IMG/VR virus record: IMGVR_UViG_3300043540_000321
Coordinates: 64,001-128,000 of that record
Strand: one strand, 5' to 3'
Length of the DNA: 64,000 nucleotides
Source of the DNA: a virus
A program made the position numbers and the translations under genes. Under the pieces are notes generated by a model. The model was not told the DNA's origin and ran no database searches. It saw only the letters and a list, made by a program, of their open reading frames with translations. Positions within the stretch are counted from its first letter, which is position 1. Every line of letters begins with the position of its first letter. Shown here piece by piece: positions 55,068 to 57,390 of the stretch.

Positions 55068-55514
55068 ATGAGCACCCAATTAGACGATACAGAAGACTGC
55101 CCTGGTTCTATGAATCAGCTCGACAGCCTGAGCCTATTCCACAAGATGCTGGCCAACTCCTCAGTACAGTGCGGCTGTTGCGATCGCATTCTATCAATCT
55201 GGTACATCGGACCGGGGTGTCGTTTCATTCCCAGGCATAAACCACCTAAGAAGATAGACCTCCCGGTCAATGTCCGTGAACTCAGCTACTGCATCAGTCA
55301 AAGTCTCCTCAACACAGATTATTACCTGATGGGGGTGCCTATAGAGTTGAAGGGTGAAATCCTATTCATAGTCATCTCACTTCTTGACCCAGACTTGCAA
55401 GAGCTTAAGTATCGAAAGGCGTATACCCGGTTAGAACTCTCTCATTCCTGCCTTCCACCCAACGAACTTATAGTTCAAGATCTTAAGGAAGCACTAAACA
55501 AACCCATCCTATAA
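55068..55514 (+). CDS. hypothetical protein with Cys cluster
   Basis: Start ATG 55068 (MSTQLDD); QCGCCDR motif. Confidence 0.5.
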   Translation: MSTQLDDTEDCPGSMNQLDSLSLFHKMLANSSVQCGCCDRILSIWYIGPGCRFIPRHKPPKKIDLPVNVRELSYCISQSLLNTDYYLMGVPIELKGEILFIVISLLDPDLQELKYRKAYTRLELSHSCLPPNELIVQDLKEALNKPIL

Positions 55515-55550: not shown

Positions 55551-55588
55551 AGGGAGCTTCTTCTGCGCGTGAACAGAGGCTCCCTTTT
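55551..55588 (+). terminator. probable intrinsic terminator
   Basis: AGGGAGC...GCTCCCT imperfect stem followed by TTT at the end of the plus-strand block. Confidence 0.5.
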
Positions 55589-55672
55589 CTCTTCCTATTA
55601 TCCTCTTGCTAGAAAAAATCCATTGGAAAAAATGACGCGGATTTGAGAGAGGGGTTGATTTGATCGATCCGA

Positions 55673-56361: not shown

Positions 56362-56436
56362 TAGGGGAAGACCAATAGTCTTCCCCTACTCCGTCGCTGG
56401 GTATTGGTAGCCCAGCTTGAAAAGTTACTTCGAAAC
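56362..56436 (+). promoter_or_regulatory. repeated hairpin module, copy 1
   Basis: 11-bp perfect IR (56362-56388), then GTCGCTGGGTATTGGTAGCCCAGCTTGAAAAGTTACTTCGAAAC, then GGAGG and ATG. Confidence 0.7.
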
Positions 56437-56446
56437 GGAGGATTTT

Positions 56447-56656
56447 ATGGACAGCAAACTACTACAACTAATCGCCCTTTCTCAAACTACTGAAGTTGAT
56501 ACGACTCAAACGGTCTATCAACTCAAAGTTAAAGGAATTCCCTGTGGACTCTTTAACGAGATAGGCGATGCAGAAAACGCAGCCGAAGACGCTGGGTTCG
56601 ATTGTCGCGACTACCAAATAGTCGTCTTCTCAGAACCGGACGTTAAAGCCTGCTAA
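56447..56656 (+). CDS. small early hypothetical protein
   Basis: GGAGG Shine-Dalgarno before ATG 56447; 69 aa. Confidence 0.65.
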   Translation: MDSKLLQLIALSQTTEVDTTQTVYQLKVKGIPCGLFNEIGDAENAAEDAGFDCRDYQIVVFSEPDVKAC

Positions 56657-56661
56657 GACTT

Positions 56662-56740
56662 AGTCCTGCGATCGAACGATCGCAGGACTTCTCCGTCGCT
56701 GGGTCTGGTAGCCCAGCTATGACAAGTTACCAAACGAAAC
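56662..56740 (+). promoter_or_regulatory. repeated hairpin module, copy 2
   Basis: 13-bp perfect IR (56662-56689), then GTCGCTGGGTCTGGTAGCCCAGCTATGACAAGTTACCAAACGAAAC, then GGAGG and ATG. Confidence 0.7.
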
Positions 56741-56751
56741 GGAGGTCTATT

Positions 56752-57060
56752 ATGGCTACCACAACAACAGTTGCAACCGTAAATGAACTTAACTATCTGT
56801 CTGCTCGCCTGCGTGCAGAAGGGTTTGTCGTTAAAGTTCATAAGCTTGAGCAGGGTTGGGAGCTGACACTTTCCGAAGGCGGAAGGCCAAGCTCATTTCA
56901 ACCCAAACAAACGGAAACCGGTGAGGAGATTATCTTCTTTAACCTATCCGAGTTTAAGCGAGGTGAGGCAATGGCTGCCGATCTTCGCGAGCAAGGAATT
57001 GCTTGCAAGTTCGCTAAAGCCAAGAGTGGCAGATGTTGGTATCTCAAAAGACTTGCATAG
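56752..57060 (+). CDS. small early hypothetical protein
   Basis: GGAGG Shine-Dalgarno before ATG 56752; 102 aa with two similar L.A.LR..G repeats. Confidence 0.65.
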   Translation: MATTTTVATVNELNYLSARLRAEGFVVKVHKLEQGWELTLSEGGRPSSFQPKQTETGEEIIFFNLSEFKRGEAMAADLREQGIACKFAKAKSGRCWYLKRLA

Positions 57061-57073
57061 TCTACAACAAAAC

Positions 57074-57112
57074 AAACAAAAGAGGAGCTGAAAACAGCTC
57101 CTCTTTTGTTTT
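57074..57112. terminator. bidirectional intrinsic terminator
   Basis: 17-bp perfect IR AAACAAAAGAGGAGCTG-AAAA-CAGCTCCTCTTTTGTTT. Confidence 0.75.
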
Positions 57113-57124
57113 AAGGAGGTCATT

Positions 57125-57283
57125 ATGTTGGAAGCAATCTTGATGGATTTAGCAATTGAATTAGTTGTTGATTGCGTGTTAGGTGCTGTTATTGCAGATG
57201 CTGAATTAGGAATTCTTGAACCTTTCGTCAGTGAAGGGGTAAAGGAGCTCGCTAAGAAGATCTACAAGAATCGCAAAGGCTGA
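57125..57283 (+). CDS. small hypothetical protein (52 aa)
   Basis: AAGGAGGT Shine-Dalgarno; MLEAILMDLAIELVVDCVLG...KIYKNRKG; below the track cutoff. Confidence 0.65.
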   Translation: MLEAILMDLAIELVVDCVLGAVIADAELGILEPFVSEGVKELAKKIYKNRKG

Positions 57284-57289
57284 ATTTAT

Positions 57290-57367
57290 AGGGCAGAGAA
57301 AGTAATTTCTCTGCCCTGTTTTGGTCGCTGGGTATTAGTAGCCCAGCCTGACGAGTTACTACGAAAC
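57290..57367 (+). promoter_or_regulatory. repeated hairpin module, copy 3
   Basis: 12-bp perfect IR (57290-57317), then GTCGCTGGGTATTAGTAGCCCAGCCTGACGAGTTACTACGAAAC. Confidence 0.7.
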
Positions 57368-57390
57368 CAAAACAAAGCGAGGACAAGATT

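Follow-up and report, generated by a model that had tools for sequence, protein, structure and literature searches.

Three short modules lie between small genes on the + strand of the stretch considered here, a window of 64,000 nucleotides that comprises bases 64001–128000 of the 195,211-bp viral record IMGVR_UViG_3300043540_000321 (50% GC); judged from their sequence and predicted folding, they are in all probability hammerhead RNAs that cut themselves, and not promoters. The modules (56362–56440, 56662–56745 and 57290–57373, all on the + strand) can be read with considerable confidence as two-part cassettes on a multi-gene + strand message, the second part of each being a type III hammerhead self-cleaving ribozyme. 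An earlier sequence-only reading had recorded the elements of the modules at the right places and correctly in every detail, and had offered them as hairpin promoters of the kind used by the N4 virion RNA polymerase; this is not supported, as the conserved bases are those of a hammerhead core, in register, and are connected by three covarying helices. Its fallback, a structured RNA leader or processing signal, was right in kind.

Hammerhead architecture of the three modules

Each module has the same order of elements: a hairpin, 4–6 nt, GUC, GCUGGG(U)...(G)CCCAGC, YUGANNA, GUUAC...C, GAAAC, a Shine–Dalgarno sequence and an ATG. The GTC lies at 56393, 56695 and 57324, which is 4, 5 and 6 nt from the end of the hairpin in copies 1, 2 and 3, respectively, and the downstream ATG codons start at 56447, 56752 and 57391. 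The conserved parts map base for base onto a type III hammerhead (by a manual mapping that was then tested); read from 5′ to 3′ they are the first strand of stem III, the U16.1–C17 cut site, stem I, the core YUGANRA, a stem II of 1–3 bp, GAAA, and the returning strand of stem III. What had been taken as a spacer of 4–6 nt behind each hairpin is thus the 5′ strand of stem III, which pairs with the bases just after CGAAAC. GUC, the pair G10.1–C11.1, GAA and the pair A15.1–U16.1 are present in all three copies; the nucleotide at the cut site (H17) is C in all of them, unpaired between stems III and I, and either C or U in the relatives described below. Stem I consists of 6–7 bp with a loop of 7–9 nt. 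The core of copy 3 is fully canonical, that of copy 1 carries the U3/A8 variant, and that of copy 2 has one extra A behind U3 (Table 1). Stem III differs between the copies by compensatory changes, CUCCG/CGGAG as against GUUUUGG/CCAAAAC, the partners being about 45 nt apart.

The minimum free energy folds (RNAfold) contain the three-way junction in all copies: loops close stems I and II, stem III is open, one C stays unpaired where stem III passes into stem I, and the upstream hairpin stacks directly on stem III. Compared with shuffled sequences, the folds of the whole cassettes are better by about 5.4 standard deviations (SD); for the 85-nt construct of cassette 1 the predicted energy is −39.8 kcal/mol (z −5.5).

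The arrangement is confined to this place in the genome. GCTGGG-N6-12-CCCAGC occurs three times in the window, where 0.03 occurrences are expected from shuffles, and in the whole 195,211-bp genome only at the three modules; two covariance models run on the whole genome found the same three modules and no other copies. A fourth match (C1:22766–22813, 14 bits) was rejected, as it lies within coding sequence and lacks the GUC/GAAA geometry.

Relatives, covariation and a common layout

A covariance model built from the three copies only (R1) was run over loci that had been fetched by short DNA patterns from viral, metagenome and genome collections. The search of genome and relatives for further copies and covariation had been suggested by the sequence-only reading; it gave no more copies in this genome and 12 further distinct sequences (43–74 bits) in other viral and metagenome contigs, bringing the total to 15, and in these the helices covary. 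The contigs span 28–61% GC, and tblastn of eight of the relative loci against this phage found no common protein. Stem I is replaced in relatives by CUUGGGU/GCCCAAG, GUCACGC/GCGUGGC, GCGUGGC/GCCACGC and CUUGGAU/GUCCAAG, so that its apparent invariance among the first matches was an artefact of the search patterns.

Pairing was counted in an alignment of the 15 sequences fitted to the model (A5), which was used since a MAFFT alignment (A4) misplaced insertions and deletions. In stem I, all seven pairs show double changes and 100% of the cells are paired; in stem III, pairing of the inner six base pairs reaches about 99%, a single cell being unpaired, and two or three pair types are met at five of them. 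Positions 3 and 8 are CG in 10 sequences, UA in four and UG in one. U4, G5, A6, A9, GAA, A15.1–U16.1 and G10.1–C11.1 are invariant (15 of 15). A pseudoknot between loops I and II, predicted from the letters alone, could form with at least four contiguous Watson–Crick or wobble pairs in every sequence, and one of its pairs covaries (GC in 13 sequences, AU and GU in one each). When the partners in the alignment are slid by 1–3 columns, pairing falls from 94% to 27–52%. An extra base beside position 3 is found in five sequences (A, A, U, G, U), and it is placed after position 3, since it is the base directly behind stem I that pairs with position 8. The pair U16·G24 occurs in 12 of the 15; G·U pairs are specific for one strand. 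As far as sequence comparison can tell, the modules are part of a sub-family of phage type III hammerheads, with 15 distinct sequences so far, which is missed by current Rfam models.

Other searches yielded no further members. The stem I palindrome alone was met in more than 120 bacterial contigs, a number close to what chance would give for 17 bases in 596 Gb, and the core is missing at those sites; most of the 74, 53 and 37 pattern matches in other scans were likewise attributable to chance. The single match of a second model (R2) among 151 cyanobacterial genomes (27 bits) was rejected since it has GAGA instead of GAAA. Nothing useful came from blastn and tblastn searches in which the 56-nt ribozyme, the region and the 1442-aa protein encoded downstream of it were compared with 50,697 phage records, and a search for related loci in viral and genome collections with the 1442-aa protein gave nothing.

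The composite layout is kept along with the ribozyme. In 13 of the 15 sequences an unrelated hairpin, the ribozyme, a ribosome-binding site and a start codon follow one another, and a stop codon stands upstream in the cases inspected. The hairpin (again in 13 of 15) is strong, −13 to −35 kcal/mol, of unrelated sequence, and ends 0–8 nt before the ribozyme; in 14, a scripted motif search found a Shine–Dalgarno sequence and a start codon no more than about 45 nt behind the ribozyme, the fifteenth sequence (L257) having an ATG shortly after the ribozyme and no clear Shine–Dalgarno match. The Shine–Dalgarno sequence is part of the 3′ strand of stem III, or overlaps with it, in several members, among them copies 1 and 2 and L098. 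The other contigs with the motif carry a single copy. At five loci (L337:3009–3110, L343:6010–6120, L344, L357 and L370) CTAGTT, found in the stem III 5′ strand, recurs in the arms of the upstream hairpin, which could therefore compete with stem III as a possible folding switch. At three others (L037:3850–3884 on the − strand, L287:1056–1085 and L279:847–876) a second small hairpin, GCCCC-N4-5-GGGGC, stands immediately behind the ribozyme, ahead of the Shine–Dalgarno sequence.

Table 1. Predicted ribozymes, hairpins and neighbouring genes, in window coordinates (aa, amino acids)
Feature	Position	Strand	Details
Hammerhead 1, type III (predicted)	56389–56440	+	Stem III CUCCGU (56389–56394) / ACGGAG (56435–56440); stem I 56396–56416; core UUGAAAA 56417–56423 (U3/A8 variant); stem II G56424–C56431; GAA 56432–56434; predicted cut C56395 / G56396; Shine–Dalgarno GGAGG (56437–56441) in stem III 3′ strand
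Hammerhead 2, type III (predicted)	56690–56745	+	Stem III UCUCCGU / ACGGAGG; stem II GUU/AAC (3 bp); core U3 (56718), one extra A (56719), UGACAA (56720–56725); predicted cut C56697 / G56698; Shine–Dalgarno GGAGG (56741–56745) in stem III
Hammerhead 3, type III (predicted)	57318–57373	+	Stem III GUUUUGGU / ACCAAAAC, 8 bp; core CUGACGA (57348–57354); stem II GU/AC; GAAA 57363–57366; predicted cut C57326 / G57327
Hairpin 1	56362–56388	+	11-bp perfect stem, 5-nt loop; no U-tract; directly abuts stem III
Hairpin 2	56662–56689	+	12-bp perfect stem, 4-nt loop; sequence unrelated to hairpin 1; abuts stem III
Hairpin 3	57290–57317	+	12-bp perfect stem, 4-nt loop; U-rich tail is the stem III 5′ strand
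Terminator-like hairpin	57074–57111		Perfect 17-bp stem, A-run and T-run flanks; between the 102-aa and 52-aa genes; no ribozyme there
Upstream gene, 186 aa	55795–56355	+	Open reading frame list; no Pfam/PHROG match; stop codon precedes cassette 1
Small gene, 69 aa	56447–56656	+	Open reading frame list; between ribozymes 1 and 2; no family match
Small gene, 102 aa	56752–57060	+	No relative among 5.8 billion protein clusters searched
Small gene, 52 aa	57125–57283	+	Open reading frame list; ahead of cassette 3; no family match
Gene, 219 aa	57391–58050	+	Open reading frame list; downstream of ribozyme 3; followed by a 388-aa gene, then the 1442-aa gene
Gene, 1442 aa	59266–63594	+	The run of small genes leads to it

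Proposed working and its alternatives

The proposed working starts from a transcript that would come from upstream and run through the small genes. Each hammerhead would fold, with a short Watson–Crick pseudoknot between loop I ([G/A]GUA) and loop II (UAC[U/C]) replacing a long stem II, and would cut after C17, that is, at 56395|56396, 56697|56698 and 57326|57327. The piece upstream of a cut would then end in the stable hairpin and a tail of 7–9 nt with a 2′,3′-cyclic phosphate, the piece downstream would begin with a 5′-hydroxyl and carry, in this order, the hairpin of stem I, the ribosome-binding site and the start codon, and the long phage transcript would be cut into single-gene messages. 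The ribozymes presumably cleave in vivo in this way, and the hairpin presumably protects the new 3′ end from exonucleases, or aids the folding of the ribozyme, rather than terminating transcription. A hairpin with a 5′-hydroxyl, like an end formed by a hairpin and a cyclic phosphate, is a poor substrate for the usual bacterial decay enzymes, and these messages would be expected to share in that resistance. In copies 1 and 2, cleavage may in addition loosen stem III and improve the access of ribosomes to the buried GGAGG; the predicted probability that the Shine–Dalgarno sequence is unpaired is 0.04 before and 0.24 after cleavage in copy 1, and 0.10 before and 0.36 after it in copy 2.

A wider proposal is made more tentatively, namely that the cassette is a self-contained unit of mRNA punctuation which moves between unrelated phages, one cut capping the upstream 3′ end, providing the downstream message with a nuclease-resistant 5′-OH hairpin, and, where the Shine–Dalgarno sequence is a strand of stem III, coupling translation of the next gene to cleavage. 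If this were true, nature would have its own version of the engineered ribozyme insulators, and the rate of cleavage would be tuned by variants, for example by the extra base beside position 3.

The genes flanked by the ribozymes are without a match in Pfam and PHROG. Upstream of the 186-aa gene there is a gap of 280 bp (55.5–55.8 kb), which contains a terminator-like hairpin and a motif in common with the other + strand leader at 48.2 kb: the leaders at 48229–48277 and 55632–55668, each ahead of a block of + strand genes, share about 24 nt, AAAATG[GA]CG[GC][AG]GATTTGAGA, then GGTTGATTT, and are the only intergenic pair of that kind in the genome. The terminator-like hairpin (55553–55585), which has a T-rich tail and comes after a gene ending at 55514, suggests that a new transcription unit starts in the 55.6–55.8 kb gap. 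In the window and the rest of the genome, Rfam at its curated thresholds reported no ribozyme and only two RNAs, a HEARO RNA outside the window (RF02033, 153.8 bits; genome C1:12516–12753, + strand; L292:12516–12753) and one tRNA gene (61 bits; genome C1 ~142077–142147, − strand; L296:14277–14347), the only tRNA in the Rfam scan. HEARO is the RNA partner of IS605/IscB-type HNH elements.

Several observations weigh against the hammerhead identification or against parts of the working proposed for it. No Rfam hammerhead model reaches its threshold on the modules (0 matches at the gathering threshold; the cut-off of RF00008 is 48.5 bits, which is a threshold of detection and not a structural criterion). 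Copy 1 has no hammerhead match, copy 2 only a mis-registered match to Hammerhead_II of 13.5 bits, and a search of 1.7 kb at E ≤ 10 gave terminator look-alikes only. Copy 3 is matched by Hammerhead_3 in the same register as in the mapping (model positions 5–50 of 54; 18.4 bits, E 0.05 when its 71 nt were searched alone), the score being low because of the 1–3-bp stem II and the long loop I. A loose hammerhead descriptor finds about one chance match per shuffled genome, so the case rests on clustering, conservation and covariation. As to the last, the alignment A5 was fitted to the structure of the model, by which the pairing counts are favoured; the double changes are also plain in the raw sequences. 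In copy 1, stem II is very weak, a G–C pair plus a U·U mismatch, and RNAfold offers an alternative, competing helix of 5 bp within the core. The extra base beside position 3 is present in copy 2 and in four relatives, and insertions 2a/2b near C3 impaired cleavage under standard conditions (PMC3088659); cleavage of copy 2 may accordingly be slow or conditional. The predicted unmasking of the Shine–Dalgarno sequence is modest and uncertain, and absent for copy 3; after cleavage, the 6–8-bp stem III is still predicted at about −10 kcal/mol, so that release may not be immediate. Finally, a promoter feeding the ribozyme region, at about 55.6 kb, is only a guess, and the shared leader motif may be a promoter or an operator.

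It is unlikely, though compatible with the hammerhead identification, that the hairpins are real and possibly polymerase-specific terminators, the hammerheads merely trimming or acting on RNA made by read-through. Of what the sequence-only reading had said about the hairpins, the inverted repeats of unrelated sequence were borne out, with stems of 11, 12 and 12 bp, and it is these strong stems that would suit termination; the label of terminator is doubtful. The combination that marks an intrinsic terminator, a GC-rich hairpin with an immediate U-run, was found in none of the three, and none of them was listed by the terminator scan: hairpin 1 is followed by CUCCGUC and hairpin 2 by UCUCCGUC, neither of which is a U-tract, and most hairpins of the 15-sequence family, for example those of L361 and L337, likewise have no U-run. 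Hairpin 3 is followed by UGUUUUGG, which speaks for termination; this tail is itself a strand of stem III, its U-run pairing with CCAAAAC. Further, the 0–8 nt between hairpin and ribozyme leave no room for a promoter, so that both must be on one read-through RNA, and the ribozyme and the next gene could be made by read-through only. At the single junction of the series where no ribozyme stands, there is an ordinary terminator-like hairpin (57074–57111), which can be counted in favour of termination at the other junctions. This hairpin resembles a bidirectional terminator; the next gene begins 14 nt further on, and its expression therefore needs read-through as well.

Less probable still is that the modules, copies 1 and 2 especially, are hammerhead-shaped leaders which no longer cleave and only mask the ribosome-binding site or insulate the genes. 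The mismatched stem II and competing fold of copy 1, the extra core base of copy 2, and a Shine–Dalgarno sequence buried in stem III of the intact RNA (unpaired probability 0.04–0.10) would all fit such a function. However, all catalytic bases are kept in 15 of 15 sequences and positions 3 and 8 change together, as is expected only if catalysis is under selection, and copy 3 is fully canonical.

That the modules are phage-specific promoters is very improbable. In this case the GCTGGG/CCCAGC hairpin would be extruded in the DNA and read by a giant virion polymerase in the style of N4, or by the 1442-aa protein as a polymerase, and the preceding hairpin would terminate. N4 has three early promoters, each a small DNA hairpin with a 5–7-bp stem and a 3-nt loop just upstream of position +1. 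Three copies clustered before small genes are in line with this, as is a genome that encodes a giant protein of 3395 aa; also, the absence of a sigma-70 match recorded by the sequence-only reading holds, there being no sigma-70-like site on the + strand between about 52.7 and 60 kb. However, the conserved bases are those of the hammerhead core in exact register, and the stem III bases covary over 40–50 nt, of which a short promoter hairpin has no need; this long-range covariation and the strand-specific G·U pairs point to RNA. The loop has 7–9 nt as against 3 in N4, though the stem has 6–7 bp, and conservation continues for another 40 nt, with elements that pair with bases lying before the hairpin. 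The 3395-aa protein gave no sequence match to an N4-type polymerase in Pfam, PHROG or PDB. The motif is not tied to the 1442-aa protein either: it occurs in the unrelated contigs described above, at eight compared loci with no protein common to this phage, and singly in five viral records of 19–31 kb that show no relative of the 1442-aa protein (these records are 27–83% complete). Conversely, a cyanobacterial chromosome encodes, presumably in a prophage, a relative of 1511 aa with 44–48% identity to the 1442-aa protein (G270:C1:697807–702231, − strand; L379, L380, L381); the 10 kb that precede its gene are free of the motif, and the upstream neighbours of that gene are no homologues of the genes here. 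The tempting inference of N4-style early promoters for the giant protein is thereby removed, and a base-precise prediction of three cut sites takes its place.

It is equally hard to believe that the RNA between two ribozymes is excised and joined into a circle by a host ligase of the RtcB type, for instance as a circle of 302 nt (56396–56697) with the 69-aa gene, even though the 5′-OH and 2′,3′-cyclic phosphate ends of hammerhead products are those joined by RtcB and the identical stem III strands of copies 1 and 2 would let the circle rebuild a complete hammerhead. For this identity the GGAGG ribosome-binding site or a local duplication is the simpler explanation, the other contigs of the family are single-copy, and Perreault et al. 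sought spliced or circular products of tandem phage hammerheads and found none (PMC3088659).

Comparison with known systems

The resemblance to N4 promoters is limited to three short GC-rich hairpins before small genes in a phage with a giant protein; unlike in N4, the loop size is wrong, the conserved elements 20–40 nt downstream pair back upstream, and the motif is not tied to any polymerase. Comparable in arrangement are the engineered insulators and switches, such as RiboJ or designs in which a ribozyme stem masks the ribosome-binding site, where cleavage standardises the 5′ end or frees the site. As in RiboJ-type designs, the hammerhead stands upstream of the ribosome-binding site, and copies 1 and 2 resemble a natural version of them; the synthetic designs lack the upstream hairpin that caps the 3′ end, whereas it is present here, and the unmasking predicted here is modest.

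With Hammerhead_3 (RF00008) of viroids, plant satellite RNAs and retrozymes the modules share the open stem III, the core and the GUC cut site. They differ in having a stem II of 1–3 bp, a loop I of 7–9 nt, and a predicted Watson–Crick pseudoknot where viroids have loop–loop contacts; the setting is the mRNA of a DNA phage instead of a circular RNA replicon.

HHphage, of the haloviruses HF1/HF2, is followed after 13 nt by a start codon and heads an early polycistronic transcript, the 5′ end of which was mapped at most 3 nt from the cut site (PMC3088659). Like HHphage and HHmeta (the latter from a saltern metagenome), copy 2 and four relatives have extra sequence beside C3 at the foot of stem I; in HHphage and HHmeta this is an insert of two bases before C3 (2a, 2b), with which cleavage needs high salt or Mg, while here it is a single variable base (A, U or G) after position 3. 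A limited literature search found no published description of a single-base insert after position 3 or of a constant upstream hairpin.

The closest relatives in arrangement are the prophage hammerheads of Perreault et al. 2011, and the basic phenomenon is already published there, the sequences described here being new members. In that work tandem hammerheads flank single prophage genes (examples are Clostridium scindens, Azorhizobium caulinodans and a triple arrangement in Agrobacterium tumefaciens), polycistronic RNAs of about 2 kb were cleaved in vitro, a stem II of 1–2 bp with a pseudoknot was active, the U3–A8 covariation was found to be natural and present in active hammerheads, and the processing of long phage transcripts into single-gene mRNAs was proposed as the role (PMC3088659). 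Here as there, two or three hammerheads lie within 1–2 kb, between small phage genes and on the coding strand, and they combine a short stem II and a predicted loop I–loop II pseudoknot with U3–A8 covariants. Unlike the emphasis of that work, in which type II is the common bacterial form, the copies described here are of type III, and the carrier is a 195-kb phage. A strong unrelated hairpin directly before nearly every ribozyme, and a ribosome-binding site that is often a strand of stem III, likewise set the present cassettes apart; the text of PMC3088659 does not mention "terminator" or "Shine–Dalgarno" and uses "hairpin" only in another sense, and a literature search for the hairpin-plus-hammerhead layout or for cyanophage hammerheads found none, the search being limited and no proof of absence. 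The strong upstream hairpin, often together with a ribosome-binding site in stem III, can thus be added as a recurrent partner of the ribozyme, and the long-unclear role of bacterial and phage hammerheads is given a testable form: they may make and stabilise single-gene mRNAs, and possibly couple translation to cleavage.

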